From: an uncultured virus (IMG/VR IMGVR_UViG_3300042867_000160)
Lineage: Duplodnaviria; Heunggongvirae; Uroviricota; Caudoviricetes
Length of the DNA: 64,000 bases
Reading direction: 5' to 3' (one strand)
Virus record (IMG/VR): IMGVR_UViG_3300042867_000160
A model generated the notes under the pieces. It was not told where the DNA came from, did no database searches, and saw nothing but the letters and a program-made list of their open reading frames with translations. Shown in pieces: positions 16,701 to 52,947 of this stretch. Position 1 is the stretch's first letter; the number at the start of each line of letters is the position of its first letter. A program made the translations under genes and the position numbers.

Positions 16701-19700
16701 AAAGAACCCACCTCGTTTTAGAATATCAGAACTAGCTGAGAATATATCTAACAAGTTAGGCATCTTCTCTTCGATCTCAGACAAGTTCATAATTGAATTG
16801 AACTGATACTCAAATAAAGAAGGAGCGTTGCTCTCAGTCAAAGTATTGATGCGCTTGCCCTCAGCATTATAGATACTGTTACTTTGATTAGGCATCTCTA
16901 CAGCAGTGAACATCTCAGCTAATCTACTGATACCATTACCTAATGTTTTAAACTTACCTTTTTTTAATGTAACAATACCTTTGGTTTTACCAGATGTAAC
17001 GTCTGCTTTAATCTTAGCTACAGCTCTACCAAACTTTACTTTTTGATCTTTATTTAACTTGTTGTAAATAGATGGAGTAAATGTGATGCCAAGCTTGTTA
17101 AGGAAATTAATCATATTGTCAGGCTCATTACCTGAGATATCATACTCTCCATCCTCAACTACATATTGTTTCTTAGTTCTATCATACTTAATGATAGAAG
17201 AATCAATCTTAGATGATAGGATGATATTATTTATCCAACGTTTCTCAACTTGATTAGCACCAGTAGTTAAATCGGCAGCACCACGGAATGTAGAATCTTC
17301 TTTTAGGTATTGAATAAACATCTCTGGCTTAGACTTAGTGTATGTCTGCATTGCAGAAATAAATAGTCTAAAATCAGAATCTTGGAATAAATCAAAGTCA
17401 ACTTTACCTGTACGCATGTCACCACCAAAACGTACAAACAATTGTACGTAGTCAGGGTTAGCTAGAGCAATTTGATATAACTTATTTACAAAGTCATCTG
17501 GATCTTTAACGTTAACTAACTTGTTAACTAATACACCATACACTTCGCTTTCTGGAATCAACTCAATTGTATTCTCAACTCTACCGTGTTTACCATTTAA
17601 TTTAGCTTGCGGAAGAACTGTAGGATCTTCAGATTGTTTACCGTCTGTTCTTACTAATGAGCTATTTAAAATCTTTACAGCATATGGTGTAGATTTCTTT
17701 AAGTCAATACTGAATGCTTCTGGAGCATATAGTCTATCTGATGCTGATTCATCGTTGATTGATACAACCTCATCTTCATTAAATGAAACATATAAACCAG
17801 CTAGATTACGTTTAGTAGCATCAATGATTTCCATGTACTGATCATCAGTAAGCTCAGAGCCATATATTTTATAACTATCTACTATACCTTTAAAGATGGG
17901 ATTTGCAACCGTTGTATCAATGTTGTACAACGACATGTTATTATTGAACAAAGTCAAATAGAACTTAGCAGTGAAGTCTTGCACTGCATAGTATTTCTCT
18001 TGTGAAGATAGTTCGTCAAATACAGGAAAAGGATTTCTTTTCTTACGTGGTTGTTTAGCCTGAGGTTGGTTTAGATAAGTTTGTGCAGAACCAGATAAGT
18101 CTAATACATTAGAATCACTAGTAACATCTTCTAATTGATTAGACATAAATGTCAATAAATCATTAAACTTAGAATTAGAAATTCCAATAAACTTAGAAAT
18201 CAAATCTACCAATTGTGTGAATAAGTTCTTCTTAGTATACTCAGGTGCAGTACCTGGCATAAGCTTAAGGAACTTTATCATATCAGGATCTGTAAGACCA
18301 AGCGTAGCCATCTCTTCGACTGATCCACCGATGTAATCTAACATCTGACGAAGGTATGTAATTTTTTGCTTAGAGAAATTATCATTAATAACCTTAGCTG
18401 CATTCTTATCAATACCTGATACAGCATTGTGATAGTAAGTAAGAACATCTTGATATACATTATCTAAGCCTTTGTATAGTTCTGTTTCTTTACCAGCACC
18501 TTTTTCAGCAAGTCTAATTTTAATTATACCATGTACAAACTCGTGTGCAATGATATATTTTTGATCTGCTTTAGACTTTCTATCAAACGTTGATCGATTG
18601 ATAGTTAATATAATCTTGCCATCAACTGTATCAATAGAAGCAACCTTTGGAAGGTTACCTCCCATATGAGCTGCGTCAAATGATACACCAATGTTAGCTC
18701 CTTTTAATATTGGAGAAATGAATTTGAATATATCAGATACACCATAGTTATCTAACACTTCATCAAGGTCAACTAACTCACCTACCTTAGAGGCTTGTGG
18801 TGCTGCTTGTTGATCACCTTGTAATGCTGCTAGTTCTGCATCATACTTAGTATCAATTTTTTGTTCAGCCTCTTCAATTGTAGAGTTATCAATTTCAGCT
18901 AGTTGAGGAGCAGAAGCCATTTCTTGTTGTCTTCTTCTTTCTATATCAGCTATAGGATCTGTTGCTACAGGAGCAGGAGCTTGTGCAGTTATTTGTGCAG
19001 CTACAGCTTTTTTAATTTCATCTTCAACAATTGCACGTACTTGAGAGGCAGCATCTGCAACTTCTAAATCTTTTAATGCTGGATTTGTAGTTACAAAATT
19101 AAGTAACTTCTCAAGAGTTTCTGGATCCTTAACATCTAGAGTGACATTGGTTCCGTCTGTATAAAACTTAAATGGAATACCTGCCCATACAAAAGGATTA
19201 GGTTTTGTATTAGTGAGATTAAAACCAGTTGATTGAGGAATTGGAGTTGCAGCAGCTTGAGGGGCTGGAGCTTGTGGTACAGCAAACTTAAAGTTTGTAG
19301 GGAATGCATACTTCTGCTCATAAGCATAAGGTACATCTTTTGTAGGAACTAGGATGTTAACTGTAAGAGGAGGAGTTGTTTTTCTTGCAGTCTTATTATC
19401 TGGCATTACATCAGATAACAAATATGTTTGATAGTTTTTCCACTTACGTTCTTGCAATTGTTTACCATCCCAGTATTGCTCATAGAATGGTTCATTGAAG
19501 AACTTAGTTAGCAGCTCATTACTTGTATTTGAATATATATTCTTTAATGCATCAACAATTTCTGCCTTACTAGCTTCTATGTTTGAGAAGTCATACTCCT
19601 TACCTGCAATAACAATATTGCCTGTATTGTAATTAATGAAGAAAGAGTTATGTGTAACTTTCTTAGAAGTCCAGAACAACACGCCCTTTAAATAAGTGGT

Positions 19701-22700
19701 GAGCTTATTGCTTTCCTTAATCTTTTGATCCTTACTTAATGAAGGATTAACTAATACATCATTAAGGTTCTTTAATACTTCAGCAATAGTAATTGCTTGG
19801 TTCTCATTAAACTTGTCATTCTGTAAGTATTGTAACTTATCACCATATGTTAATACAGGTCTACCTTTGGCAAACTTATAGTTAATACCATCTTTATGTG
19901 TGATAGTTCCTAACGTAGAGATTTGAATAAGACCTTGCGTACCTGAGATTACAGATTGCTTTATCTTATCAAACACTTTAGAAATTGCATTACGTTGAAC
20001 TTCACCTGGTACTGATACAGCAAAGCCTTTGGATAAACCAAACTCATAAGACTCTATAGCTTGTCCTGGTAGATATTGATTAGCAAATAATGATTTACGT
20101 TTATCTTTCCATTCTTTTCTATAATGTTCTATAAGAGCAGGATCATCACTAGCTCTACCTTTACCTTTTGTTGTAGGAGTTGCAGAGAATATAGTTTGCG
20201 TAATATTAAAGTTGTTATTAGCATTACCTAATACAGCATCTGATCCATTCTGATTCTTAATACGTTTACCCTCTTTGTCAATTAAGAATAATGTACCGTT
20301 ATCAGATTCAACAAATACAGCCATCACTAAACCATCTTCAGGTTCTGTAATGCTATCTATCCAATCTTTAGTTGCTACAAAACCTGGATCTTTTCTCCAA
20401 GATAATTCTGCAAGACCAGATAAACCCAGTGTCGCTTGTTGATTGTAAGTTACATATACGTAACGAACGTTTTTACGATTAGCAAAGTCATCTACATTAT
20501 TTGTAAATTCATTGTAGTGAGTGATATTGATGGGAAGACCCTCCATACCATATCTTCTAATACCTGAAGTTGTAGTGCGAAGGAATAATACATCTGCAGC
20601 AGGAAGAGCTCCTTCTTTTTCATCAATATATTCATCTGATTCAAATCCTGTATTAATGTCAAACTTATCTTCTAACTCATCTTGTATCTCTTTAATCTCA
20701 CTAGCAATATCAACAATAGCATCTTTACCTGTACGTACTTTATCATATCCTACAAATACTGCAGGATCGTATGTAGCAGTAGATCCATCAGGTAGTTCTA
20801 TCTCAACTGTGCCATCATCATTGATCTTTGTCACTTTGAATTTCTGCAAAGGATTAGATGGGTTATCATTTGTATACTCCCGACCTACTTCAAAATCTTC
20901 AAGCTTACCGTTCTTATTTGTATATTTAGCAGTAGGTGCTACAACAACAGGAACTTCTACCACTGGTTCTTCAGCGGCTGGTTCTGTAGAAGTAACAGGT
21001 TGTGCAGCAGCAGGTGGAGGAACGACCTCTCCTTCAGAATCAGTTACTTCTTGTGCAGAAGTTCCTTGATCTCCAGTCTTCCATTTATCAGGATTCTTTT
21101 TGATTTCTTCATACTCATTCATATAAAGCTTTCTACGAAGAGCCATTTCTACAACATCGTCTAATGCAAGCTTTAATGTAGTTTTTTCCTCAGGGGCAAT
21201 ATTACGTTTATCAATAAAGGCGTATGCTTGTTTCTTAGCTTCTGCTGTAGGAATCAAACCATCCATTATCTTCTCAAACATGTCGCCTGTATAAACACCA
21301 GCAAGATCTAACTTTGCATTTACTTCTGGAATACGTCTATCATAGTTACTAATCTTAGAAGCAGCGTATGCAAGTTTATCAATTATTTCAGGACTGTAAA
21401 CAAGTTCTCCTTTCTTATTCACCATTCCAGAATACCTAAGATCTAATGATTTATAAATCTCATTAGTATCGTTAGCAACTTTCTCAAATGTAAGCAATCT
21501 TTTTTGGAAGGACTCAACTGTATCATTAACGTTAGCTACGCCTTCTTCTTTTAAATTAGATAAGCCTTCTAGTGTAGAAGAGATTCTGTAAAGATCTTGC
21601 ATGTCTAGCTTCACCATATCAAACCTACCGTACTTAATACGAGTGGCTAGATAGTTGTGCATCTGATCTGCTTTGCGATCCTTAGCTTCAAGAATGTCTC
21701 CTGCCACTACAGCATCTTGTTCTTCTTCTTGTAACTTAACACCACGGTTAACACTACCCATTCTATCAACAAACGCTGCTTTGAATGTAGGAGCATTATT
21801 TAATTCTTGTAAATGAATAGCTGTGTTGTTTGCTATTTGTTTAGATTCATTAAAATTAGCAATAGCTTGCATACCACCACCTGTGATGCCACCAAGTAAT
21901 GTACCTTCTAATCCTTCTTTAGAAAGTAAAGATCCAACACCTTTACCATATTTATCTTTACCAACAAGCCCATACCATGCACCATCTAAAAGAACTTGTG
22001 CATCCTTTCCTTGATATGCTTTGTTAAAATAGTTTTGTGTACCTATCTCTAAAGCATATTGTAAGTTTTCTTGTAATGCTTCTTTAGGATCAAAAACAAA
22101 CTTACCAACTTTGAGTGCACCTTCTGTTATCTTACCAAACTTTGTAATAGCTTCTCTAGCAATATACTTACCGTTCTTATCAATAACAGTTTCAGCAACC
22201 TTACCCATCAAACTATTAGCAGCTTGTTTCTCAGCAGAGTAACTAGATCCCAATAACTTATTAAGTTGTGCATATTCAGTCACACCTAATAGTGCAAGGT
22301 TACCTATAAATGATGTAGCTCCAACACTTCTTTGACTTTCTTCAATGCGAGCTAAATCAGCACCAGTTGGTTCTATACCAAAATGGTCATCTTTATATTG
22401 TTGTATTAATGTGTCTCTATATTGCTTTGCGGTTTGCATTGCTTCAAACGAAGCTTCTCCTGCTGATGAATAAGCAGCTATAGCTGTTCTTCTAACTTTA
22501 TCTCCAATGTTAGCAATCTTATTTGTTGTACTACCAATGTTAGCAAGCTCCGCACTTAACAGCTCAATATCTCCAATGTTAGCAATACCACCTTCTAATA
22601 ATGCAGCTGCTTCAGCATTTTTACCTGCTGAGAAAGCACGAGATATATTTCTTAATAATGGGCTGTAAGTTTTAAATGATTGAGCAGCTGCAGAACCAGC

Positions 22701-23360
22701 AGTTCTTGCATCCATAAGTGCATTGACACCAAAGGCAACACCTTTCAATGCAGAGTTCATGATATTACCAGACACCATAGCACCTACAGCATATCCAGAA
22801 TTCTTTATTAGTTTATCAAATAAGAAGTTAGCAGTTAATAAATTATCTGTAGATAAGAAGTCAGCATTCTTTTCTTTATCTTCATAATAGTTAGGAAGAT
22901 ACTCTTGATCAACTTTATTATTCCACTCATCCAAACTTTTCATCACTGGGTTTTCCCAAATGTCAGAAAGCTTTCCTCCAGGCAATGCCCATTGTATAGC
23001 ACCACCAACCATACCAAATCCTCCAGCTACAGTGGTAGCTGCTAGATTCAAACCTTTTAAAACACCATTAACTCCTTTACTAAGAATACTTTGTTGTGCT
23101 CCCCAGATATCTTCATTGTTTGCACCATATACAACTTGATCATATCTACCAGTTAAGTCTCCTTGTACATCAGATAACTTAGGTGCTGTGGGCTCAATCA
23201 AGTTTGGATCCTTACTACCATCGATGAATTTTCCAAAATCATCTAATGTAGTTAGACCTTTTGTTTGAAGAGTTTGACCAAGATCCACACTCGTTACCCC
23301 TATTAAATTAGGTGCAGAAGGTTTAGCAATATAAGGACTTCCATATATATTATCTGGCAT
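10710..23360 (-). CDS. crAss-type virion RNA polymerase polyprotein (membrane-like N-terminus, zincin protease, two-barrel RNAP, ASCH-like domain)
   Basis: 4216 aa. RIPNQ at ~14346-14360 and catalytic AGSDFDIDKL at ~14223-14252 match the DFDID motif of phi14:2 gp66. HEFVH at 18531-18545. TTFDAILNGERTATTRY at ~11650-11703. Confidence 0.93.
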   Translation of the reverse strand: MPDNIYGSPYIAKPSAPNLIGVTSVDLGQTLQTKGLTTLDDFGKFIDGSKDPNLIEPTAPKLSDVQGDLTGRYDQVVYGANNEDIWGAQQSILSKGVNGVLKGLNLAATTVAGGFGMVGGAIQWALPGGKLSDIWENPVMKSLDEWNNKVDQEYLPNYYEDKEKNADFLSTDNLLTANFLFDKLIKNSGYAVGAMVSGNIMNSALKGVAFGVNALMDARTAGSAAAQSFKTYSPLLRNISRAFSAGKNAEAAALLEGGIANIGDIELLSAELANIGSTTNKIANIGDKVRRTAIAAYSSAGEASFEAMQTAKQYRDTLIQQYKDDHFGIEPTGADLARIEESQRSVGATSFIGNLALLGVTEYAQLNKLLGSSYSAEKQAANSLMGKVAETVIDKNGKYIAREAITKFGKITEGALKVGKFVFDPKEALQENLQYALEIGTQNYFNKAYQGKDAQVLLDGAWYGLVGKDKYGKGVGSLLSKEGLEGTLLGGITGGGMQAIANFNESKQIANNTAIHLQELNNAPTFKAAFVDRMGSVNRGVKLQEEEQDAVVAGDILEAKDRKADQMHNYLATRIKYGRFDMVKLDMQDLYRISSTLEGLSNLKEEGVANVNDTVESFQKRLLTFEKVANDTNEIYKSLDLRYSGMVNKKGELVYSPEIIDKLAYAASKISNYDRRIPEVNAKLDLAGVYTGDMFEKIMDGLIPTAEAKKQAYAFIDKRNIAPEEKTTLKLALDDVVEMALRRKLYMNEYEEIKKNPDKWKTGDQGTSAQEVTDSEGEVVPPPAAAQPVTSTEPAAEEPVVEVPVVVAPTAKYTNKNGKLEDFEVGREYTNDNPSNPLQKFKVTKINDDGTVEIELPDGSTATYDPAVFVGYDKVRTGKDAIVDIASEIKEIQDELEDKFDINTGFESDEYIDEKEGALPAADVLFLRTTTSGIRRYGMEGLPINITHYNEFTNNVDDFANRKNVRYVYVTYNQQATLGLSGLAELSWRKDPGFVATKDWIDSITEPEDGLVMAVFVESDNGTLFLIDKEGKRIKNQNGSDAVLGNANNNFNITQTIFSATPTTKGKGRASDDPALIEHYRKEWKDKRKSLFANQYLPGQAIESYEFGLSKGFAVSVPGEVQRNAISKVFDKIKQSVISGTQGLIQISTLGTITHKDGINYKFAKGRPVLTYGDKLQYLQNDKFNENQAITIAEVLKNLNDVLVNPSLSKDQKIKESNKLTTYLKGVLFWTSKKVTHNSFFINYNTGNIVIAGKEYDFSNIEASKAEIVDALKNIYSNTSNELLTKFFNEPFYEQYWDGKQLQERKWKNYQTYLLSDVMPDNKTARKTTPPLTVNILVPTKDVPYAYEQKYAFPTNFKFAVPQAPAPQAAATPIPQSTGFNLTNTKPNPFVWAGIPFKFYTDGTNVTLDVKDPETLEKLLNFVTTNPALKDLEVADAASQVRAIVEDEIKKAVAAQITAQAPAPVATDPIADIERRRQQEMASAPQLAEIDNSTIEEAEQKIDTKYDAELAALQGDQQAAPQASKVGELVDLDEVLDNYGVSDIFKFISPILKGANIGVSFDAAHMGGNLPKVASIDTVDGKIILTINRSTFDRKSKADQKYIIAHEFVHGIIKIRLAEKGAGKETELYKGLDNVYQDVLTYYHNAVSGIDKNAAKVINDNFSKQKITYLRQMLDYIGGSVEEMATLGLTDPDMIKFLKLMPGTAPEYTKKNLFTQLVDLISKFIGISNSKFNDLLTFMSNQLEDVTSDSNVLDLSGSAQTYLNQPQAKQPRKKRNPFPVFDELSSQEKYYAVQDFTAKFYLTLFNNNMSLYNIDTTVANPIFKGIVDSYKIYGSELTDDQYMEIIDATKRNLAGLYVSFNEDEVVSINDESASDRLYAPEAFSIDLKKSTPYAVKILNSSLVRTDGKQSEDPTVLPQAKLNGKHGRVENTIELIPESEVYGVLVNKLVNVKDPDDFVNKLYQIALANPDYVQLFVRFGGDMRTGKVDFDLFQDSDFRLFISAMQTYTKSKPEMFIQYLKEDSTFRGAADLTTGANQVEKRWINNIILSSKIDSSIIKYDRTKKQYVVEDGEYDISGNEPDNMINFLNKLGITFTPSIYNKLNKDQKVKFGRAVAKIKADVTSGKTKGIVTLKKGKFKTLGNGISRLAEMFTAVEMPNQSNSIYNAEGKRINTLTESNAPSLFEYQFNSIMNLSEIEEKMPNLLDIFSASSDILKRGGFFFNEDGDRTLDEFGNINQLKVQVISGEIDTDESEGEGVYSMNQADRYVTEINQNVSGSYYILVPADASIQWMMNLGNRISYRQFATGRGMDETIEIMKGHLDADINLALDAKNREKLKNVKGKGRELRFFKDILPQDLLDDIDGLLKQKIDKKLSDKKFRSALDKLKADNATKIYDAIVDYFNNKTDETVNTLKDLKVVTLSSTDKNDVPYYTFNKLDTNFQEEVKNVSGVDTTNMTEEELRIVAEFLTTNFELNNIEFHKLIFGDPYQFAVKKNNGKTILEETKRVKMFVSPRKFSIDSPVLNNWMNESNIIDTGTEDIYLDDKDYGYHESKSFMNVSVIKEVEVISSLYPGIDTKEADAFSIMSPGLYKEVNRKNGQWSDEADAFHNWQMAYTRKRLAAKGIYKGYTDKPALKKYDEELTSTERPTFITSILKPIVSGDKYGKVTIDLAGHKMSQMPLYYDDVIEGTALEDLFIKMFTENRDYVVMESGSKVGTEEMYTLYKDGMVNNEPFNNLIQIPFNAYGIQVETGYKDKKGQTLGSQPTKIMTIDLFSGGEPIGATPERKEFIKNAVERHDNALKRLYNEAADSLLKSFDITFEDGKAVINNKTKLAELLKEELINEDASNNLIASLDINPETNDFRTPLESSPNYMQIVRLIYSIIHKRIVSPKMNGMSAVQAPVTLWENSEKGRRIALKTDDGYEEIDRARFDSLSDEEKKKVVLTDDTLKFYTEKEPWCEIYTTLPPQARALFSDKKKFPNDEEIVKYLNKQSPEALMGIGFRIPNQALNSNERFKIAGLLPDWMGTTVIVPSAITTKAGSDFDIDKLNMYLKSLYKDALGNIKTVEYKDSEEATKEFYGQVFDQLTEKEQRAIIKQMEQADSEDVELQEKLIGKQEKLNDKIANRQKYVDRKYREAIENEYYSSIDTLLALPENFKRLTTPNSTDTLMGIADEIDVLTGYDESKIKNRILDRNYMSFVRQAFVTSKQWIGISATATTGLSLRQKAGSFVDHIFKMSLPHNQTADGKVDLSQRFFKDTEDYISDILSESTSGFADAGTDPFIFKIIYSDQIVGSFMFLIGAGVNPRNAAMWLQQPIVKDFVTTADLDNKYILREMTYEDPVTKERSTLVQSILDKYSASESAVERTTDINIPNLDKNIGVTLTDDQKAEQLLILQEFFSIAKAANGLYIFQDSTNYDTTKFSNADDFRRKLMKTSNQYKFSDDSFRISSAKDLLNKTHLRTLVNALTRANLGVGAILRFNTPAYRSVINKVIDSYAVNDFVSPTKFSKIANKLSASLLDYIIQTNKAYNVGELVDGEDSVINKFQKAVEAHPELQILQDLEIIPGKTIVAPATISLKVPAETAADKNRYTEGLRELRDNDTTNDLYKDLVKLAIVQGTYKTKVSFKELIPEEDLSAELVQSINAPGVEDRLKDFYENARFQRTNFNDPDISPRINPPTDQILAGSFPAPFSGDMIDLYSFTTSISFGKRGEESVRDIIGLHPKSKGAAYDFVVVPRAINDKSGDMIDYETGYTVQGSDFAIEMQKDESAYSKVYGYQKIKYSDGSPVMVRMSENSQTLHAYKLVNLYGDGRFLTEYYNTLQKSELENGTVKLNTEYSNTAIVKWLAKQGKLAGFTQAPVAPAAQSEGNIEGQMTYVYGNNKRSDVSANTTFDAILNGERTATTRYASDGKLDYWKNVKVGDTITWKSGDNRTVDVIVTKALQPLVGSGKTAEQWSKLEGWSVNYFNNKVKPKLDGAWQIEFKLPESTQPAPVVETKPANIKVLEKLEMAKNKLEAFEVSTDGVFYNYFRGGARLKASSFDELVDRNLRSASTNGAYISKDGMPYDNLATSAFEASGMPMDNEYAVEALREFLTNYPDNWKTPYNNIINEIDSLEEQLGGREITVKVNKKDITIKPTGEMFFADGKPVTDTVLQNQASIAKEKRNETLRTSISGGFSFFILSDNKILLSGKNNVGKEYIADPEMMQRILDKAVIYKKTC

Positions 23361-26117: not shown

Positions 26118-29100
26118 TTAGAGTTCATGCATAGATTTTACAATTCCTCCTTGTCCAAAACTAGTAGGCTTAGCTACTTTTGCTTTTCTAGCTTCATCAA
26201 CTGCTTTCCTTATTTCTAATGGTGTCAATTCAGTTAATGATGTAGCACCATTGCCAACATTTGGAATATTGTAATTTGCAATGTTTGTGTTATAAGCTTG
26301 ACCGTTTGGACCAAACCTATAACCATACTGGTTTTCATATATCCCTAATTCTTTATTCTCAAATTTATTCTTAAGAATCTTATCAGAAATAGATTTAAGT
26401 GCAGTGACTGCTTGTTCTTTAGTTTTAGACTTAGCAGTTTGTTGTCTTACATACTGCTCATCCATAATACCAAGATTCATCTTATTAGCTTCGTTCAATA
26501 CTTGTCTGTTAGTTTCAGCAACACGTTGCTTCTCTCCTTGATTAAGTCTAAACTCTTCACCTTTTATTTTATTCTTAGCATCGTATGCTTGAGAAGCAAT
26601 CATAGCAAGTGCTTCAGGATTACCTCTAGCCAGTCTTTCAGCAGCACGTGTTTGTGCTGTCACCTCATTCATTTGATCTTGTAAACTAATTTGAATACCT
26701 TGAGATAAATAAGGAACAAACTTCTGAGCTTGTACAGGTTCTAATTGATTTGTAGCCAAAGCAAACATCTCACCAGTAAAAGCCTCAGGATCTATAGGTC
26801 TTTGATTACTAGGTCTTAAGTAAGGAAGTGCAGATTCTAAACCTGTAAATAAGTTATTACCAAATCTCTCTAATCCTTTTGAAAATCCTGAACCAGAGTT
26901 ACCTGCTCTAGGAGAAGAAGGAGAAGTTTGTTCTATAGGAGAATAGTCTTCTACAGGAGAATAGTCTTGTTGCATTTGTTGTTGAGCCTGTGGTTGCATT
27001 TGTTGCATCTGTGGGCTTTGAGCTTGTTGGGTTAGTTGTTGTTTAGGACTTCCATCGTAATTATATAATTTTAAATACTCATTATCAGGTAGCCATTGTT
27101 TGTTTATTGCGTCGTATACGGTAGTGTTACCAATATCATCAACTTGTCTTTGACCTTGTCTTTGACCTTGTTGTTCTATTGGTGTGTATTCTGAATCAGG
27201 CATATAATAATTACTTTGCTCATCCATAGGAGAAGGGAATCCTGATGCACTAGCAACAGATGGTTGATACTCAGAAGAACTTTGTATTGGTTCATACTCT
27301 AAATCAGACATGTAGTAGTCACCACTGTTATTCATAGGAGAAGGAAACACTGGAGCATTAGCAGCTCTCTTAGGAGCTAGTAATGCTTGATTGCGTCTGT
27401 TCACTTCTAAATCAAGTGCATCAAATACAGGTGGCTGTGTAACAGGTGCAGCACTTTGTGGAGGAGTATTAACGTATCCAGGTTGTTTATATACAGGAAC
27501 CTTTCTAGGAGCATTTAAGTCTGCTCTTCTAGCTTTAGGTTTTACATATAAATCTGATGCGTTCTTCTTTGCCCGTGGAGTTCCAAAGTTATCGCTAATA
27601 AAATCTTTAGCTTCTCCTGCAGCATCTTTAATACTTTCATATGTACTACCTACTGCATTTCTAAAACGATCAGCCAGACCAGTTCCTGAATCTTTTCCAA
27701 AATGAACGTGAGGACCACTTCCACCTGTTTGTCTTCTAATCTTAGGATCATATTCATTAATTGCTGTTAAACCTTTATCCATCATGTATTTAACAATATC
27801 TGCATCTTTAGTTAATGCTTCATATGCTTTTGATCCTAACTTAGGGAACTGTACATCAACTGCTTCACCTGCACCATGTCTAGAATCATTACCTGATTTA
27901 GTCTTTGCTCCTTTTCTTAATCCAGATGTAACTTGTAAATCATATCCTTTTCTTTTCAATAGATTAATTAATCCAGATACAGCAGGGTCTAATCCTGACA
28001 AGTTTGTTCCATTTGCAGCAGTGGTTAACTTAGCACCAAATGCAGCTTTCTTTAATACTCCACCATACTTAGCTGTACCCATCTCCTCATCAGTTTCATT
28101 AATTGCAGTTTGTACAGCAGCAGCATTAGTGATATGTTTAGCAAGATACATGTTCTGCATCTCTATACCTTCTAATGTTTTTTCAATTGCATTTGCTCTT
28201 AGCTTTGCAATAGGACCGTCAAGTTCAAGATTGGCAGCTTCTTCTTTAGCATTCATTTCTTGTTTATTCAACTTCTTCTGTAACTTAGATTTTTGATTAA
28301 AGTAATGTTTAAATGTTGTTCCTATTTTTATATCTGAATCCTCAATAGCTTTCTTAGCCCATCCTTGAATTTTCTCTGCTCCAAATATATAAGCAGATTT
28401 ACTAGGCTCTCCTGTTGATGGATCAATCTTTCCACCATTAGCAAGTTCTACAATACCTTCATAATTTTCAGCTTCTATTCTCCTATCACCATACTGTACA
28501 CCAATACCTTTTTGTCCTGGTGCATCTTTTGCAGCTTGTGAATGATACCCACCAGAAAATATACCTAATGGTCCAACGTAAGGATTGACCCCACCATCTT
28601 TTATACCACCACCCCATAAAGTTTGCAACTGTCCACCTTCTCCAAAAGTTTGTAATGCTTCTGCACTAGGAGGTGTATACTGTTGAAGATGTCCACCTGC
28701 ACGATACTCAGGCATACCATCATGAGCAAATGAATGTACTTGAGATACGTCAAGATCACCAAACTTTGTTATCACTTGTGGTTGCCAATCATGACTCACC
28801 CATCCTCCATTTTTTAAATTAGCAGAAAACTGCCCAGCGTTAATATTCTGAAGTGCACTAGAAGCTAAGTTATTAAAGAATGGAGTTCGTTTTTTTGCCA
28901 TCATACCTGCTTGCTCATTAGCTTCAGTTTTACCCATAAAGTTAACAACTAGACCAAGTCCAGGTATATTTTCTGTAGCGCTTGAGGCAGCTTGCCATCC
29001 TGGACTCATCTCACCTGTAACACCATCATTATTCCATCCAGCATTAACGTCAGCTAATTGCCCACCAATTCCATATTGTTTTGGATTAGTGTTTCCAAGA

Positions 29101-29666
29101 TCTGTATAGAGATCACCTACATTATACATGTTCTGAATCTCTGTAGGATTACCACCAACCTTTGCACCTTTCTTTGCAGAAATTCCTTTTGGGGTAGCTC
29201 CTGTAACAAGTTGATTTTCAGGACGAAGATAATTAGGCTTTTGTTGTTTCTTTGGTGGAATTGAACCAATTAATTTACTTAGGTCTAAATACTGATCTAG
29301 TTTTTTATTGTAAATAGAACTAGCTTGAGCATCTTGAGCAGCTCCAATAACAGTGCCTGCCAACTTTGCATAATCAAATCCTTTTCCACTACCACCTGAA
29401 ACAGGAGGATTAGTTCCGTAACCAAGAGAAGCCGCATCTGATTTACTAACTTGACCTGATAGATTATCAAGTTGTCCTTGACTGTTAATAAAAGATGTAT
29501 TAGGCATTCCACCTGTACCCTCGAGACCAGGAATTAAACTAGCACCATCTTGAGCTTTCTTTAACTCTTTACCATGCTTCTTCATGAACGCTGCCTCTGT
29601 AGGAAACTTCTTGTAGAACTCTTTCTCAGTTTTTACACCTGCTAATTTTAAGATTTGAGCTTTCAT
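26118..29666 (-). CDS. Cargo protein 1-like virion protein with peptidase M15 (DD-peptidase/Hedgehog fold) domain and PhixxGG repeats
   Basis: 1182 aa. VTSGLR...SRHGAGEAVD...GPHVHFG gives the M15 Zn ligand pattern. About 11 PhixxG[GAT] motifs, a Q/P-rich linker and a C-terminal coiled coil. Lies between the muzzle and the vRNAP block. Confidence 0.75.
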   Translation of the reverse strand: MKAQILKLAGVKTEKEFYKKFPTEAAFMKKHGKELKKAQDGASLIPGLEGTGGMPNTSFINSQGQLDNLSGQVSKSDAASLGYGTNPPVSGGSGKGFDYAKLAGTVIGAAQDAQASSIYNKKLDQYLDLSKLIGSIPPKKQQKPNYLRPENQLVTGATPKGISAKKGAKVGGNPTEIQNMYNVGDLYTDLGNTNPKQYGIGGQLADVNAGWNNDGVTGEMSPGWQAASSATENIPGLGLVVNFMGKTEANEQAGMMAKKRTPFFNNLASSALQNINAGQFSANLKNGGWVSHDWQPQVITKFGDLDVSQVHSFAHDGMPEYRAGGHLQQYTPPSAEALQTFGEGGQLQTLWGGGIKDGGVNPYVGPLGIFSGGYHSQAAKDAPGQKGIGVQYGDRRIEAENYEGIVELANGGKIDPSTGEPSKSAYIFGAEKIQGWAKKAIEDSDIKIGTTFKHYFNQKSKLQKKLNKQEMNAKEEAANLELDGPIAKLRANAIEKTLEGIEMQNMYLAKHITNAAAVQTAINETDEEMGTAKYGGVLKKAAFGAKLTTAANGTNLSGLDPAVSGLINLLKRKGYDLQVTSGLRKGAKTKSGNDSRHGAGEAVDVQFPKLGSKAYEALTKDADIVKYMMDKGLTAINEYDPKIRRQTGGSGPHVHFGKDSGTGLADRFRNAVGSTYESIKDAAGEAKDFISDNFGTPRAKKNASDLYVKPKARRADLNAPRKVPVYKQPGYVNTPPQSAAPVTQPPVFDALDLEVNRRNQALLAPKRAANAPVFPSPMNNSGDYYMSDLEYEPIQSSSEYQPSVASASGFPSPMDEQSNYYMPDSEYTPIEQQGQRQGQRQVDDIGNTTVYDAINKQWLPDNEYLKLYNYDGSPKQQLTQQAQSPQMQQMQPQAQQQMQQDYSPVEDYSPIEQTSPSSPRAGNSGSGFSKGLERFGNNLFTGLESALPYLRPSNQRPIDPEAFTGEMFALATNQLEPVQAQKFVPYLSQGIQISLQDQMNEVTAQTRAAERLARGNPEALAMIASQAYDAKNKIKGEEFRLNQGEKQRVAETNRQVLNEANKMNLGIMDEQYVRQQTAKSKTKEQAVTALKSISDKILKNKFENKELGIYENQYGYRFGPNGQAYNTNIANYNIPNVGNGATSLTELTPLEIRKAVDEARKAKVAKPTSFGQGGIVKSMHEL

Positions 29667-29667
29667 A

Positions 29668-32600
29668 TTATTGGTATTTGTCCAACCAGCCTCCTGGTTG
29701 TTTAGTGTTGTAATTAGTAAAGTTAGTTAATTGATCCAGCTTTGTCAACTGTCCACCTTCTTCGTATTTATATCCTTTCTTTTTAAGATAGGACATCAAT
29801 GCCTTGTCTTGTTTCAATGTATCATAATCTTTATTGAACATCTCTACATATTTAGGATCTCTAGGGTTATATCCTTGTACACCTTTCTTCTTTAAGAACT
29901 CAGCAGATAAATCAAAATAGTTTCTATTACCTATATCAGGAGTTGATTCTATTTTCTTTTTATATTGCTCCATTAATTTAGGATTCTTTTTGAGATATTC
30001 TCTTGCTGCTTTTTCATCAGCTACTTCATATTGATATCCCCCTGGATCTTTTATTACATTAATTCCTGGAACTTTTTTATCTGCTAAGAATCTGTGAGGA
30101 GCATATGGCTGATAATCTTCTGCCACATTATATGCAGAGGTATAAGCACTATTACCAAGACCATGTCTTGAATTTCCTTTTTCTTCACCAAATGTAGATT
30201 CTCTACCAGCTAATGTTAATAATTGACCAATAGGAATATTGTTTCTTTTAGCAGCTGCTGCAATATCATCAATCAATCTAGATGAAACATTTGCATTTTT
30301 GAATCTTCCTGTTCCAAGTTTTATTTTATTTTTATCTTTGCTATAATCAAATTCATTCTCAAACTCAAGTTGCTGTTTTAATTTTTTTGATTTAGGATTA
30401 TTAAAACCTAAATCAAGAAACTTATCATACATATCTGATTCAGAATTAATAGGAGTTTTTGTTACTGGCGCTGTTGTTGTTTTATCATCATCATCAAATA
30501 AACCACCAACATAATTAACTGCACGTTTACCTAAATTAATAATAGAATCTAACACTCCACCATCCTGCATCATAGGATACTCTGTGACAGAGTTTCCATT
30601 GTATTGATACTCTTGGTTAGGATACATCATTTGAGTGTCTCCTGTGTCACTTACGCCCATCACAGGATAAGGCACACCTTGCATTGTAATTTGGTTAGAA
30701 CCAATTTCTGTTATTTCTCCTGGATGATCCCACTGTCCTCTGTCATCTTTAATAACAGAACCATTCTTAGAGATAGACTTAGGTTTGAAGTCTAGCCCTT
30801 CTTGATAGTATCTCATCTCTGTACCATTCTGTGCAGAAGCTTCTGTCTTCTTAGCATACTTACCTTCACTAGGAGCTCCTAGTCTAGTATACATATTTCC
30901 TACAGCTCCTGGCATAGATCCTCCCATTGCATAATCCCTAGTCTTAATAGGTGCAGGGATGTTCTGATTCTTTTCTACATACTTATGTCTAAGCTTAGCA
31001 AAGTCTTCAGCAGCCTTAACTGTTTTAAATGGACCACCTAGGTGTTCTCCATATGCATTGAATACTCCTTCAGGATTTTGTAATATTTTACCTTGTCTAT
31101 ATCCTGGAACTAAATACACTTCACCTGGACCGCCTATAGATGTTGAGTATTCTGTAGACATTTCATTTTCTCTTGGATTATATCCATAGTTTTTAAAAGT
31201 CTCAGTTGGTTGCATAAATCTTTTAATAGGACCACCATCTTCCATCTCAGGAACTCTTTGACCAACTAATGGATACATAGCACTTCCTTGTCTAGTCATG
31301 TGTGTATATCCTGTTCTAGGATCTACCACTTCTCCATATGGACTTACTTGTGACTGTGGTTGTGGTATTTCTATAATAGGTTCTTGTGCATAGTTCCCTT
31401 CTATAAAATCTATTGTAGATTGAGGAGTAGGTTCTAGCTTTTGATATATTACAGGTTGTGTTGGTTTTTTATATATTGGAGTATAAGCCTCTGAACCACG
31501 ATTAGATACAGCCCCTATAGGTTTAATTCCATATTTATCGCCATACGCGTTTGGTGGATAAGCAAACTTTCCTTTTAAATCTGGATGATTCATATTATGA
31601 TAGTTCATCCATCCATATTCATTACCTGAATTATTCTTCCAGTCTTTTAAGGTTTGTCTATCAACTTTGTTATAAACTTTTAAACTATCGTTATAAGCCT
31701 TTAGTCTAGGATCTTTTTTATCATTAACAACAATAGGTTTAACTTTACCACCCTCCTTAAACTGTCCTCCCCATGCAGGAGAATAGTTACGTCCCACGTT
31801 ACTATATCCATCACCTTCAAATCCTTCAGGAGCTGATACAGAGTAATCATTATAGTTAGGTTGTACAGGACCTCCATCATTATACTTCTCTAACCATCCA
31901 CCATTTTCTTTTTTAGGAACTTCTTTATATCCTTTTAACCAATGTTCTTTTAATAATTTTACATTAGGATCAGATAATGGAATATTATTTTCAGCATATC
32001 CATAAGTTCTATCCCATAAATGACTTCCTCCTCCAGGAGATTCTATAAGCTTTCCTGAATATTCAGCCATACCTGGACCTTTATATCCAAGTACTAAATT
32101 TGGATTATATTCAGTAGTCATTGGATAACCTTTATTAAACCAAACTTTATCTGCTCTATTTTTTACAGTAGACATAGTCCAATTATTACTATTTTGAGCA
32201 GGTCTTAATTTACGTTGTATCAAAGCATCAGTTACTCCTTCCTCTCCTAACATTCTATAATAAGCTTCAGGATTAGGTTTAAATGCCCAAGGATTAATCT
32301 TATAAGCTTTAGAAAGAACTCCTGTCTTTGTAATAGCTTTTGCAGATTTAGCTAATAATCCTGCTCCTACTAAATTTGTAGGATCTAATATAGCATCTGC
32401 AGCAAAAACTCCATAAGGATTTTCAATGCCCATTGCTTCAGATGGAGATTGCTCTTTACCTGTAATCATTTTAACTAACTGCCTTTGTGGTGCACCTAGT
32501 GTAATGTCTAACATATCTGAAATAGGTTGATCTACACCTTTTTTAAGACCAGTGTTTTTTGTAAACTTAGTACGTGTAGCATCACTAACTGCAACATTAC

Positions 32601-32742
32601 CACCTTCTTGATATTTATCTAACCAACCACCATTTTTCATTGTATTGTCCTTACCACATATATGACAGACGTTCATATCCTCCTTACTGGACTTTGACTT
32701 ACTCCAGGAATGACCACAAGAACATGTAACGTTACCTTTCAT
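29668..32742 (-). CDS. Modular cargo protein with N-terminal Zn-ribbon, PhixxGG-delimited modules and lysozyme/transglycosylase-like C-terminal module
   Basis: 1024 aa. CSCGHSW...CHICG at the N-terminus. GGWL[DE]KY occurs 3 times. IAAAAKRNNIPIGQLLTLAGRESTFG...GYNPRDPKY resembles the SLT catalytic E-S motif. Confidence 0.65.
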   Translation of the reverse strand: MKGNVTCSCGHSWSKSKSSKEDMNVCHICGKDNTMKNGGWLDKYQEGGNVAVSDATRTKFTKNTGLKKGVDQPISDMLDITLGAPQRQLVKMITGKEQSPSEAMGIENPYGVFAADAILDPTNLVGAGLLAKSAKAITKTGVLSKAYKINPWAFKPNPEAYYRMLGEEGVTDALIQRKLRPAQNSNNWTMSTVKNRADKVWFNKGYPMTTEYNPNLVLGYKGPGMAEYSGKLIESPGGGSHLWDRTYGYAENNIPLSDPNVKLLKEHWLKGYKEVPKKENGGWLEKYNDGGPVQPNYNDYSVSAPEGFEGDGYSNVGRNYSPAWGGQFKEGGKVKPIVVNDKKDPRLKAYNDSLKVYNKVDRQTLKDWKNNSGNEYGWMNYHNMNHPDLKGKFAYPPNAYGDKYGIKPIGAVSNRGSEAYTPIYKKPTQPVIYQKLEPTPQSTIDFIEGNYAQEPIIEIPQPQSQVSPYGEVVDPRTGYTHMTRQGSAMYPLVGQRVPEMEDGGPIKRFMQPTETFKNYGYNPRENEMSTEYSTSIGGPGEVYLVPGYRQGKILQNPEGVFNAYGEHLGGPFKTVKAAEDFAKLRHKYVEKNQNIPAPIKTRDYAMGGSMPGAVGNMYTRLGAPSEGKYAKKTEASAQNGTEMRYYQEGLDFKPKSISKNGSVIKDDRGQWDHPGEITEIGSNQITMQGVPYPVMGVSDTGDTQMMYPNQEYQYNGNSVTEYPMMQDGGVLDSIINLGKRAVNYVGGLFDDDDKTTTAPVTKTPINSESDMYDKFLDLGFNNPKSKKLKQQLEFENEFDYSKDKNKIKLGTGRFKNANVSSRLIDDIAAAAKRNNIPIGQLLTLAGRESTFGEEKGNSRHGLGNSAYTSAYNVAEDYQPYAPHRFLADKKVPGINVIKDPGGYQYEVADEKAAREYLKKNPKLMEQYKKKIESTPDIGNRNYFDLSAEFLKKKGVQGYNPRDPKYVEMFNKDYDTLKQDKALMSYLKKKGYKYEEGGQLTKLDQLTNFTNYNTKQPGGWLDKYQ

Positions 32743-33641
32743 TATTTATAAGAGATTTGAGAAGGTGCAATAATAAATTGACTGACAAGATGAGCGTCTG
32801 ATGTATCATCTAAGATGTGTCTTACTAATACACCTTTGGCTCTCATAGTATCTTTCTGGAATGATCTAACACCATAGTCCATATTAGATTGGTTTAACAC
32901 CTTATCTATAGACAATGATTCACATCCAGTATTAAATAATGGTAGTTCTCTATTTATAACCACTGACCAGAATGTATTGTATTGATAGAAAGAATCACTC
33001 TTTGTAAATGTGATTGTTTTACTATCTGTATTGTAAATAGGATAGGTGTTGTAAGCAGCTAAGTTATTCATTGGCTTAGGAACTAGCTTTAATAATCCTG
33101 TACACTGTTGACCATTGTATATGATCACCTTATTAAAATACTTATTGTTTGTTTCAATCTTAGCATTTTCATTAAATACACCATCGGGTATAGGAAGATA
33201 TTTATATGCTCTAGTAAAATCTTTAACGTTTTGAAGTATCTCATCTTGATATTGATAGAAGAATGGATATTCAATAACATAAGGTTCTATGTTTCCGTAG
33301 AAGTTATTAGTTAATTTTGTATCAGTGAGATGTCTCCACAAAGTTCCTGTGTTAACTACATTACATGTAAGAGCTGCAATTTGTGCAGGACTTAATTGAA
33401 TGATTTCTCTATGTAAAAAGAATTTACATTTACCTATTGATTCAAGAATAATCTCTGTAGCATTATAAGGAACATAATAATAAATACCTGTACATAGATC
33501 GTTCTTATAGACATTAGTTCCTAATACATTACCTAAGTCATCAGTAACGTTAAAGTAACTTGTTCTATAACCCATCTCTGTTATTTTAACAAAGATTTGT
33601 TTTGCTATGACGGCAGTCCCTAATAAATTACAGTTAGGCAT
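32742..33641 (-). CDS. Probable C-terminal portion of split muzzle/tail stabilization protein, with an N-terminal beta module
   Basis: 299 aa, 11 nt after the muzzle stop. LWRH...NNFYG...YVIEYPF...FNKVIIYNGQQCTG...MRAKGVLVR resembles the C-terminal part of crAss stabilization proteins (from memory, not searched). Confidence 0.6.
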   Translation of the reverse strand: MPNCNLLGTAVIAKQIFVKITEMGYRTSYFNVTDDLGNVLGTNVYKNDLCTGIYYYVPYNATEIILESIGKCKFFLHREIIQLSPAQIAALTCNVVNTGTLWRHLTDTKLTNNFYGNIEPYVIEYPFFYQYQDEILQNVKDFTRAYKYLPIPDGVFNENAKIETNNKYFNKVIIYNGQQCTGLLKLVPKPMNNLAAYNTYPIYNTDSKTITFTKSDSFYQYNTFWSVVINRELPLFNTGCESLSIDKVLNQSNMDYGVRSFQKDTMRAKGVLVRHILDDTSDAHLVSQFIIAPSQISYK

Positions 33642-40500: not shown

Positions 40501-41730
40501 TTATAATCTAAATTCAAATTCAGAAATCTTACCTAACTCTTTATCATATACTAAAGCAAGTGCTGCTCTAACGCTATGAACAAAGTTGTTATCTTGATGC
40601 CATCTATCAGTTCCTGACAAGCTAGGCATTTGTTGTATTCTTACTCCCTTCACTTCCTTAGCCATGTAATGATGCTTATCTCCTGTGTGCACCTCTCTAT
40701 ACTTAGCACATCCAAACATTACACTGTAATCAGGATGGGTTGCAAACAATAAAGGAAGATCCTCAATCTTGCAGTTACCATGATGATAACCAATAAACGT
40801 ATCTCCTAACATAGTTGCCTTTAGTACACTATGTTCTCTATCAAAATATATGTTAGGATCTGCATTAAAGTAAACATCAAGAGCATGAGCTAAATAATAA
40901 GACTTAGTTCTATCATGATTACCTTGTACTAATATAATATGTACTTCTTTACAAGCAGTCTTTAATGCTTTGATTGTGTCTACAAGTAAAGCAAATCCTA
41001 GTTCGTATTCATGAGCATAATCAACAATAGTATCTTGTGGAGTACCGTTAGTTGTTTGATCATGATAGTTATCTGTATGAAAGAAATCATTTGATATTGG
41101 AAATACAATTCTATCAATATCATATAATGCTTTTACATCATATGTAAGACTTACAGCTGCGTTGAAATATCTTTTACATCTAACTGATGGTGAATTATCT
41201 CCATCAATATGCCTCTTAGCTAAATGAAAATCAGATAGAGATATCTCAACATCTATTAGCTTAGCACGTTGTATTTCTGGTTGTGGCTGGGGTATGTAGT
41301 TGGATTTATAATCTACTAAGAACTTAGCAAAGTCCTCAGCTGTATAATCTTTAGCCTCTTTCTTTTTAGAGAAAACTGATGATGTAAACTTACCATTAGG
41401 TAATACTTTAGACCAGTAGTTAGTGATTACATATTTATCTAGATTAATCTTATGTAGCTTAGCTAGCTCTAGATCATTCTTTGGCTCAAAGTCAAGTATT
41501 AATACACTCTCTATTGTTCCTTTTTCATTATTAACTTTTCTTACTGCTTCATAATTAGAGGCAGTTGTTTTCAATGTATCGTTGGGTTCTTGATCTCTTT
41601 CTCTTATCTCTTTTAACAATTCATCTACTTCTTTTTCAGTAATTCCAAGCCTTTCAGCATAGAATGTTTTGCTTTTCTTCATTCTCAAAAGTGCTTCGAG
41701 ATGAGAAAGCATGTCCTGATTTTCAGTCAT
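40501..41730 (-). CDS. Calcineurin-like metallophosphoesterase with N-terminal HTH-like segment
   Basis: 409 aa. Motifs SDFH, NDFFHTD, QGNHD, YHHGN, HTGDKHH, plus YAERLGITEKEV (HTH-like). Confidence 0.88.
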   Translation of the reverse strand: MTENQDMLSHLEALLRMKKSKTFYAERLGITEKEVDELLKEIRERDQEPNDTLKTTASNYEAVRKVNNEKGTIESVLILDFEPKNDLELAKLHKINLDKYVITNYWSKVLPNGKFTSSVFSKKKEAKDYTAEDFAKFLVDYKSNYIPQPQPEIQRAKLIDVEISLSDFHLAKRHIDGDNSPSVRCKRYFNAAVSLTYDVKALYDIDRIVFPISNDFFHTDNYHDQTTNGTPQDTIVDYAHEYELGFALLVDTIKALKTACKEVHIILVQGNHDRTKSYYLAHALDVYFNADPNIYFDREHSVLKATMLGDTFIGYHHGNCKIEDLPLLFATHPDYSVMFGCAKYREVHTGDKHHYMAKEVKGVRIQQMPSLSGTDRWHQDNNFVHSVRAALALVYDKELGKISEFEFRL

Positions 41731-52807: not shown

Positions 52808-52947
52808 AGCGAGTGCTGACCATCGAAGGTACAGCGACCAGGGACACCCCAATCCAAGCACTCTCAAGAAAAGCCTCCTCACAGGAGGGAGGGGGTGAGG
52901 AGGTTTTCTTGTGCCCATCGGTTGATGGGCGGAGGACATACTGTCCT
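52808..52947 (-). other. GC-rich multi-hairpin element after MCP, including an intrinsic terminator-like stem
   Basis: Minus-strand stems: GGACA/TGTCC, GCCCATC/GATGGGC, CAAGAAAACCTCCTCAC/GTGAGGAGGCTTTTCTTG, GAGTGCT/AGCACTC. Confidence 0.75.

Follow-up and report, generated by a model that had tools for sequence, protein, structure and literature searches.

Why are two adjacent large genes of a crAss-like phage punctuated by copies of one short peptide built around a Gly-Gly pair, and what does that peptide do? The genes lie in a 64,000-nucleotide (nt) stretch of DNA from the IMG/VR virus record IMGVR_UViG_3300042867_000160, hereafter the window, and encode proteins of 1024 amino acids (aa; protein A) and 1182 aa (protein B). 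The window is part of the genome of a crAss-like phage from an uncultured clade; at 64 kb it covers only part of that genome, a scope that applies to every gene-family search of its open reading frames (ORFs) reported here. In these two adjacent genes of the cargo block, the motif serves as the seam peptide of a carrier-and-cassette architecture.

The Gly-Gly motif is confined to two adjacent genes

An initial annotation, made from the sequence alone, had listed 22 motif strings in A and B, had placed the extended form GGWL[DE]KY at the start, middle, and extreme C-terminus of A, and had seen no periodic use in the portal, the major capsid protein (MCP), or TerL. All 22 strings are present in the listed order, and the extended form occupies residues 38-44, 281-287, and 1017-1023 of A, which ends in GGWLDKYQ (B ends in FGQGGIVKSMHEL). 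With the strict regular expression [MYFLIVWA]xxGGx[LIVM], we counted eight copies in A and seven in B, and all 15 have a hydrophobic residue three positions before the Gly-Gly. Composition-preserving shuffles (5000 of each protein) gave means of 0.64 for A and 0.79 for B with a maximum of 5, and none of the 5000 reached the observed number. The window's remaining 28 long ORFs contain 10 strict copies in 18,323 aa, i.e., 0.55 per 1000 aa versus 6.8 in A and B together, so the motif is about 12 times denser in these two proteins than in the rest of the window. The portal contains one copy, and the MCP and TerL contain none. Looser strings with G[AST] in place of Gly-Gly (e.g., AQNGTEM and AAFGAKL) represent a second junction type, AQxG, which is also found at cassette borders.

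This distribution extends to relatives. Among 8000 scored metagenome candidates, 1369 matched A and 432 matched B, and a B-family profile gathered 1761 clusters at 50% identity (E <= 0.001), while tblastn of A, B, and the 36-aa A tail against 50,697 GenBank phage records gave no match. The 240 listed relatives carry 1286 strict copies in 258,837 aa (4.97 per 1000 aa), with three or more copies in 235 of them. We then surveyed 80 related viral loci by gene position, keeping the 57 with a B-like ORF by a head-pattern test and dropping the other 23, and using the narrower expression [MYF]xxGGx[LIVM]. Its density is 3.96 per 1000 aa at the A-like position (-1 relative to B) and 3.31 at the B-like position itself, versus 0.06-0.43 at six neighbouring positions with 49-56 ORFs each, including 0.08 at -4, 0.16 at -3 (muzzle-sized), 0.43 at -2, 0.11 at +1, and 0.06 at +2 (polymerase-sized). 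The tag is enriched at the A and B gene positions and far rarer in their neighbours; it is confined to two adjacent genes in the cargo block.

Conservation follows the motif and not Gly-Gly as such. Across A and B relatives, the Gly-Gly of motif sites is 90-99% conserved with variable x positions, whereas the pairs at A 237, A 746, B 52, B 91, and B 358, which belong to no motif copy, are not conserved. Gly codons differ between motif copies, with GGTGGT as a recurrent hexamer. A logo of 1,254 non-redundant Gly-Gly sites was dominated by Gly-rich stretches and gave no clear motif signal.

Cassettes are exchanged at the motif in A-like proteins

Exchange was assessed in 335 distinct A/B-family proteins, with an insertion defined as at least 25 extra aa between two collinear high-scoring segment pairs (HSPs) of at least 60% identity, and a border counted as marked if a motif lay within 8 aa. 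This yielded 350 insertion events, 207 of them distinct. The strict motif marks the left border in 43% of the distinct events, the right border in 52%, and both in 38%, versus 8%, 8%, and 0.9% at random positions; if [ASPK]QxG is accepted as well, the share with both borders marked rises to 58% (random 1.9%), and 17% have no marked border (random 76%). A-like and B-like proteins differ: among 180 A-like events, 66% are marked on both borders and 90% on at least one, versus 4% and 33% of the 27 B-like events. Likewise, 41% of 577 similarity breakpoints in A fall within 5 aa of a motif Gly-Gly (9% expected), while for B it is 7% of 400 (6% expected). The initial annotation had the motifs lying between otherwise unrelated modules and proposed comparing them with indel boundaries among relatives; this holds for A and not for B. 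Its broader idea of a cassette system is borne out, with tag-flanked modules gained, lost, and swapped among relatives exactly at the tag.

The form of these junctions is consistent. The two HSPs share 6-10 residues of the shorter partner, at one hybrid motif, and the longer partner reads motif-cassette-motif. At the DNA level, the two junctions of each of 40 cassettes were compared: their longest stretch of identity is 6 nt in the median and at most 13 nt. Random window pairs give the same median, and their 95th percentile is 8 nt. Because the match is no longer than random, the seam is conserved as a peptide, not as a recombination repeat.

Ten homologues contain His_Phos_1, ART-PolyVal, Amidase_2, YkuD, ADPrib_exo_Tox, or PG_binding_1, and their seams mostly lie 13-100 aa from the domain edges. 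None of the 11 Pfam domain matches holds the usual [YFM]-x-x-GG motif; one match to the strict expression, IVPGGGV, lies inside ADPrib_exo_Tox. A Pfam scan of 35 cassette-rich homologues at 1e-4 left all 35 without any family.

Protein A is a small carrier with three inserted cassettes

Protein A consists of a conserved carrier of ~240 aa and three inserted cassettes. Its relatives are mosaics that share high identity over short stretches, and they include cassette-free forms of 239, 254, and 258 aa. The 239-aa form maps onto A as four pieces (1-48 onto 1-46, 8-83 onto 246-334, 77-204 onto 604-728, and 200-238 onto 986-1024), which defines cassettes I (51-277), II (335-603), and III (732-992). 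The carrier itself comprises a zinc-ribbon or WLxKY head, NYSPAWGGQFxxGG, AMGGSxPGAVG...VTEYPM, and the tail LDQLTNFTNYN..GGWLxKY, and passenger cassettes enter it in frame at four or five seams. At the site of cassette II, for example, minimal forms read QFQMGGS where A reads QFKEGG...YAMGGS.

In A, residues 1-34 form a zinc-ribbon-like head with four Cys/His residues, directly before the first WLxKY tag. The carrier segment 278-334 has near-invariant columns in 60 sequences, and 63 HSP starts and 63 HSP ends fall at its borders. Within the next carrier segment, residues 661-725 are modelled at a predicted local distance difference test score (pLDDT) of 65-85, with weak cupin-like matches (Z up to 5.3). 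The A-type tail, which is usually C-terminal (Table 1), is internal in the homologues P0085 and P0077, where it is followed by DGGTV and a further payload with Amidase_2.

Cassettes I and II of A have no match, and for cassette I this includes Pfam and PHROGs. In a protein-language-model Atlas, the nearest named clusters to cassette I (A 50-278) are pre-toxin PT-TG (0.84 and 0.82) and MafB and the P22 gp16 ejection protein (0.80). Cassette I may be an effector module; these scores all fall under the tool's reliability line and are a lead only.

Cassette III resembles lysozymes or lytic transglycosylases in its predicted fold. VIA-align matched the model to MltF (5aa1_A; Z 7.2, root-mean-square deviation [rmsd] 3.3, 103 aa aligned) and g-type lysozyme (4g9s_A; Z 6.7), with further matches to FlgJ, AtlA, and T7 gp16 (6yt5_G; Z 4.3), and the top 16 rows are all glycosidases of the lysozyme-like fold, at middling Z values of 5.3-7.2. 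Foldseek gave E values of 0.65 or more, and there was no Pfam match. Enzymes of this superfamily have a catalytic Glu; the cassette contains GRESTFG, a putative catalytic sequence. PDB searches with the profiles A2 and A3 gave no match, and neither did Foldseek of the complete A and B models at E <= 0.001.

The motifs of B lie in a conserved core

Protein B has a conserved head, core, helical C-terminal part, and tail, and a variable middle. When the core is taken as residues 150-540, six of the seven strict motifs lie inside it, while 52 HSP ends fall at residues 521-560. By sequence comparison, the motifs of B belong to the conserved core and not to exchange points. Motif number is also flat with protein length among B-like proteins (r 0.08, median 5), and the rise among A-like proteins is weak (r 0.41). 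Since breakpoints in B do not cluster at the motifs and motif number does not follow length, the motif is not merely a junction mark.

The variable region begins with a cassette (residues 555-685) that is predicted to be a LAS/M15-like peptidase. Foldseek matched it to VanXYc (4oak_A; E 0.035, prob 0.95) and also to VanY, LdcB, and ChiX, and a further structural match is VldE (9flh; Z 7.8, rmsd 3.4, 92 aa, 23% identity). Pfam Peptidase_M15_3 scored E 0.025 and 15.1 bits, under its cut-off of 23.2. The cassette holds SRHGAGEAVD and HVH, candidates for the zinc ligands H-x(6)-D ... H of LAS peptidases. In a wide VIA search of B, helical hairpins dominated, with no crAss001 chain among the matches listed. 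At the other end of the protein, most B-like tails read NGAIVKAIKNL.

Proteins with an internal B core were considered as possible A-B fusions; this was ruled out, as they are insertions after the head. The A-like stop and the B-like start are mostly 1 nt or 18-20 nt apart, with a range of -23 to +22 nt. The A tail type (DKYQ/N or NKYK) tracks the B head type (MKAQ/MKKQ or MKDQ), and this pairing may be a lineage signal or a functional pairing.

The crAss001 cargo protein C1 shows the same kind of seam

The gene order in the window is muzzle (PF25731), 299-aa ORF, A, B, 886-aa ORF, and 4216-aa ORF with DFDID, and the corresponding order in crAss001 is gp44, gp45, gp46, and gp47. B stands after the muzzle gene and before the polymerase-associated giants, which is the gene position of crAss001 cargo protein C1 (gp45). 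Sequence searches did not connect the two. PF25725 (crAss_CARG1) had no match to B in hmmscan at E up to 5, while gp45 itself scores 2.3e-66; the best BLASTP E value between B and gp45 was 0.84, hhalign gave a probability of 17% on 11 columns, and hidden Markov models (HMMs) of five B segments ranked gp45 no higher than 2000 shuffles. The matches listed by the B-family representative search were all strong relatives, so that no bridge to crAss001 was possible from it. A likewise showed no similarity to gp45 above shuffles in the BLASTP, hhalign, and HMM tests. In the Atlas, the named cluster nearest to the B core is PF25725 crAss_CARG1 at 0.88, under the tool's 0.9 line and a lead only.

The seam itself is nonetheless recognizable in gp45. 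An aromatic residue or Met within three positions before Gly-Gly occurs 10 times in its 842 aa, compared with 21 times in the 14,505 aa of 38 other crAss001 proteins. Two parts of gp45 have been resolved by cryo-electron microscopy, a ring-bound helix (214-245) and a portal-bound domain (425-552) (Bayfield et al. 2023, PMC10172136); the former is flanked by AYGG and FAEGG and the latter by AFGGWL and FAYGG, and PF25725 begins at residue 424. A homologue search with the CARG1 region of gp45 brought back proteins 98-100% identical and no others, too alike for building a profile; from these, we compared nine gp45 variants. A 113-aa indel runs from FAE/GGG to AKD/GGG (slashes mark the breaks), others run from NAFA/ to /FGG or start at FAYG/ (FAYG/../GNN), and N-terminal insertions come right after F-x-x-GG. 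On this sequence comparison, the length variants of gp45 break at the same kind of seam as A. Gut crAss001-like gp45 alleles (P0382 vs P0387, P0479, and P0418) range from 610 to 859 aa and differ by segments bounded by aromatic-GG, with portal-binding domains 98-100% identical. Altogether, C1 is like A and B in that its gene belongs to the block that follows the muzzle gene, it is enriched in aromatic-GG motifs, and its indels fall at motifs; it is unlike them in its motif flavour, A[YF]GG, in the lack of significant sequence similarity, and in that the motif goes unmentioned in the available text of PMC10172136.

A proposed role for the seam as an uncut hinge and docking site, and alternatives

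A and B are probably carried in the virus particle; packaging and delivery to the host are presumed because of their gene position and wall-degrading domains. In the AlphaFold2 model of A (mean pLDDT 56), nine of the ten Gly-Gly pairs fall in stretches of pLDDT below 50 directly adjoining folded blocks; the remaining pair is at an edge. In that of B (mean pLDDT 54.5), five of seven fall in such stretches, and of the other two, one borders a beta domain and the other belongs to a hairpin inside that domain. The reading that we favour, and to which we would give an even chance, makes the seam both a hinge and a docking site. Gly-Gly would serve as a hinge between independently folding modules and would be left uncut. 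The resulting beads-on-a-string chain would be packaged and would later pass through the portal and tail, a route proposed for C1, which is reported to be stretched between tail and capsid in crAss001 (PMC10172136; review PMC10136315). The conserved hydrophobic residues, above all those of the Gly-Gly-tethered WLxKY at the N-terminus, internally, and at the C-terminus, would dock on a shared virion partner. As a tentative extension, the carrier might be a plug-and-play platform, in which any domain inserted in frame between two seams would fold, enter the crAss-like virion, and reach the Bacteroidota host by injection, with WLxKY and Gly-Gly as the loading and threading code.

Several points weigh against the hinge-and-docking reading. 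Low pLDDT at seams may come from shallow, mosaic alignments rather than from disorder, and the strongly conserved segment A 278-334 is also modelled poorly. The motifs of B are off the exchange points, and one of them (408-414) lies within a modelled beta hairpin; therefore, a single role for all copies is not assured. Homology of B to crAss001 C1 is not significant in any statistical test run, and the T5 tail protein pb2 is cut three residues upstream of a Gly-Gly, before its muralytic domain. That the seams stay uncut is something that we infer, and docking is pure conjecture with a hypothetical partner.

One alternative is polyprotein processing, in which a phage or host protease would cut at or beside each seam and free the modules, whether inside the head, inside the tail, or once ejected. 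The motif does sit between modules, in predicted linkers, and the natural C-terminus of A, ...WLDKYQ, is what a cut between the internal ...WLDKYQ and EGG would produce. The T5 tape-measure protein pb2 is cut after R1127, between FVPR and AEGGMM, just before the muralytic domain (PMC10038345), so there is precedent for cutting close to a seam of this kind in a wall-degrading protein of the tail; however, this site misses the strict expression (R at -3), and HMMs show no homology to A or B. Zincin-mediated processing has been proposed in the polyvalent-protein (PMC5512222) and crAss polymerase papers, and the 4216-aa protein of the window has an HExxH at 1606. Yet Drobysheva et al. describe the fused zincin-linked polymerase protein as a polyprotein that is “likely cleaved,” and the 4216-aa protein has zero [MYF]xxGGx[LIVM] and zero AQxG. 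In GGWLDKYQEGG doublets, 9 aa apart, cutting would yield 9-aa scraps, and only six residues follow the last Gly-Gly of A. Natural ends clash as well. Of 175 A-like proteins, 74 start with M-x-x-WLxKY and another 50 carry a zinc-ribbon head ahead of GGWL, while 148 end in GGWLxKY plus 0-2 residues; the gene upstream of B has a GGWLxKY-type end in 52 of the 57 loci, and in the other five, the ORF one further upstream does. N-termini before WLxKY and C-termini after it imply cut boundaries that disagree, so both neighbours lay claim to WLxKY and no unique scissile bond can be placed. Thus, WLxKY is a self-contained element that stands at either end or, with a Gly-Gly on each side, within the chain. 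Pfam and PHROG scans of the 30 window ORFs, which represent only part of the genome, found no protease family. The crAss001 papers, in the text available, give gp45 as a 90.8-kDa protein and contain no “cleav-” or “proteoly-” wording, which counts against cutting; a gel band for gp45 is not given in the text or supplements examined of PMC6235969. The interpretation offered in the initial annotation is therefore supported as far as a cassette system goes; against simple cleavage after Gly-Gly stand the 9-aa doublets, the clashing ends, and the motif-free polymerase polyprotein, and we regard processing as unlikely.

The initial annotation had also proposed a capsid-loading code, in which every tag would bind capsid, scaffold, or portal so that tag-flanked modules are packaged. 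Hydrophobic positions beside Gly-Gly do stay conserved although the adjoining modules are unrelated, both ends of the proteins bear tags, and in crAss001 C1, the portal-bound domain begins at AFGGWL and the ring-bound helix follows AYGGPL. But the other presumed cargo proteins (886, 4216, and 1647 aa) have no tag, so it is not required for packaging in general, and the weak or absent rise of motif number with length fits carrier seams better than one tag per passenger; we consider such a code quite unlikely. A very improbable explanation is that the motif is a footprint of short DNA homology in illegitimate recombination, without a protein role. A few junction pairs do share 9-13 nt and the GGTGGT hexamer recurs, but the shared runs are of random length, codons differ, Gly-Gly and its flanking hydrophobic residues are under purifying selection across about 1,760 clusters, and motifs are conserved in the B core, where nothing is exchanged. 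Other readings take up the remainder.

Relation to known systems

In polymorphic toxins, a short peptide borders a constant delivery part and an exchangeable payload, as do VENN of CdiA and the DPxGL region of Rhs; there is one border per protein with a C-terminal payload, and Rhs cuts itself at the border. A likewise swaps payloads at a short conserved peptide, but has several seams inside one carrier. T7 gp16 and P22 gp16 are ejected virion-internal proteins with a lytic transglycosylase-like domain, and it is the T7 gp16 chain that cassette III matches at Z 4.3. Their architectures are fixed, and we know of no seam motif or cassette exchange in them. The cysteine proteases of adenovirus and African swine fever virus (clan CE) cut Gly-Gly-X sites, (M/L/I)xGG, and encapsulin cargo uses loading peptides. 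As in the seam, a short Gly-Gly-centred motif is involved, there acting within a capsid in cutting or in the docking of cargo; in the seam the hydrophobic residue is one position further from the Gly-Gly, and no such protease family was found among the 30 window ORFs scanned, from only part of the genome.

Further close systems include the polyvalent proteins (Iyer, Burroughs, Anand, de Souza, and Aravind 2017, PMC5512222), which are thought to be delivered together with DNA in phages and conjugative elements. Like A and B, they are large mosaics with wall-degrading enzymes, ADP-ribosyltransferases, and many unknown domains. Polyvalent proteins combine two to fifteen unrelated effector or enzyme domains in a polypeptide and have mosaic relatives; A and B fit this description, with predicted lysozyme-like and LAS-peptidase-like domains, other domains in their homologues, and a mosaic HSP pattern. 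ART-PolyVal (PF18760) was found in two of 20 homologues scanned. Unlike A, the polyvalent proteins are described with no conserved junction peptide (“glycine” and “linker” are absent from the available text) and no small carrier with defined seams (PMC5512222). T5 pb2 resembles A in that its cut adjoins Gly-Gly before a muralytic domain, but it has a single site and only 5 Gly-Gly in 1219 aa (Linares et al. 2023, PMC10038345).

“GGWLDKY” was not found in the literature searched, nor is the motif described in the Crassvirales cargo-protein and crAss-like polyprotein papers covered, a search that did not extend to subscription journals or bioRxiv supplements. New here are the count of cassette borders, the definition of a minimal carrier, the comparison of crAss001 variants, the reasoning from natural protein ends, and the T5 comparison.

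Gene neighbourhood

Features of A and B and the neighbouring genes are given in Table 1. The muzzle gene is apparently split over two ORFs (1549 aa and 299 aa), and relatives have a ~1215-aa ORF followed by a ~335-aa ORF there. The 4216-aa ORF (10710-23360, minus strand) has the HExxH (AHEFVH) at residue 1606 and a polymerase motif, DFDID, at residue 3040; from these motifs it looks like the fused zincin and virion RNA polymerase “polyprotein” of Drobysheva et al. Its sequence matched nothing in Pfam, PHROGs, or PDB and lacks D-x-D-G-D; the PDB search, run with phmmer, was equally negative for the muzzle protein. A 409-aa DNA repair exonuclease-like gene (phrog_704, E 2e-55; 40501-41730, minus strand) lies amid the tail and structural gene block. 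Two collagen-repeat fibre genes (2-5671 and 44849-48877, both minus strand) have ~22% Gly, the second with a Peptidase_S74 chaperone domain, and both overlap the G+C-rich stretches of the window (0.41-0.45 vs ~0.33).

Table 1. Seams, carrier segments, and cassettes of proteins A and B, and surrounding genes, in window coordinates
Feature	Coordinates	Strand	Remarks
A head seam, residues 35-50, MKNGGWLDKYQEGGNV	32593..32640	-	First WLxKY tag with Gly-Gly on both sides; Gly-Gly 90-99% conserved; pLDDT <50
A cassette I, 51-277	31912..32592	-	Missing from minimal forms; a GGWLxKY copy on each side
A carrier segment, 278-334, KENGGWLEKYNDGGPV...NYSPAWGGQFKEGGKV	31741..31911	-	Three seam copies; pLDDT 31-39
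A cassette II, 335-603	30934..31740	-	Internal seam MEDGGPI at 500-506; missing from minimal forms
A carrier segment, 604-731	30550..30933	-	YAMGGSM to MQDGGVL; AQNGTEM junction at 637-643; small beta domain 663-725
A cassette III, 732-992	29767..30549	-	Lysozyme-like/lytic-transglycosylase-like domain; pLDDT 84-96
A tail tag, 993-1024, YEEGGQLTKLDQLTNFTNYNTKQPGGWLDKYQ	29671..29766	-	C-terminal in 104/108 holders
B head, residues 1-45	29532..29666	-	Three-helix, ends KKAQDG; N-terminal in 118/118 holders; pLDDT 77-86
B conserved core, 198-530	28077..29075	-	Strict motifs at 198, 284, 321, 341, and 408; beta domain 340-430; helical hairpin 435-529
B 532-556, AKYGGVLKKAAFGAKLTTAANGTNL	27999..28073	-	Three junction motifs in a row at start of variable region; pLDDT <50 for 534-553
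B 555-685, LAS/M15-like zinc peptidase cassette	27612..28004	-	pLDDT 83-94; start of variable region
B tail, 1170-1182, FGQGGIVKSMHEL	26121..26159	-	G-x-[IVL][VIL][KR] in last 15 residues of 124/160 B-like proteins
TerL	58491-60524	-	First in minus-strand gene order
Portal	55906-58491	-	After TerL
Crass_capsid MCP	52946-54499	-	After portal; ring proteins next in order
Muzzle protein, 1549 aa	33653-38302	-	PF25731, E 4.7e-33; matches N-terminal part of phrog_15100
299-aa ORF	32742-33641	-	Matches positions 1589-1781 of 1783 of phrog_15100 (muzzle PHROG)
Protein A, 1024 aa	29668-32742	-	Two genes after muzzle gene
Protein B, 1182 aa	26118-29666	-	Adjoins A; gene position of crAss001 cargo protein C1
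886-aa ORF, then 4216-aa ORF, then 1647-aa ORF		-	Downstream of B, in minus-strand order

Implications

Proteins injected by a phage decide the first minutes of infection, and in crAss-like phages they are mostly unknown. The conserved seam offers a rule for splitting giant proteins into carrier and passengers, and thus for cataloguing candidate wall-degrading, anti-defence, and takeover effectors. With it, the loading of proteins into the crassvirus particle and their threading out of it can also be tested directly: crAss001, a phage amenable to culture and imaging, has in its C1 a natural 113-aa cassette bounded by the same kind of seam. Should seams accept foreign inserts, they would provide a route for phage delivery of proteins into Bacteroides.

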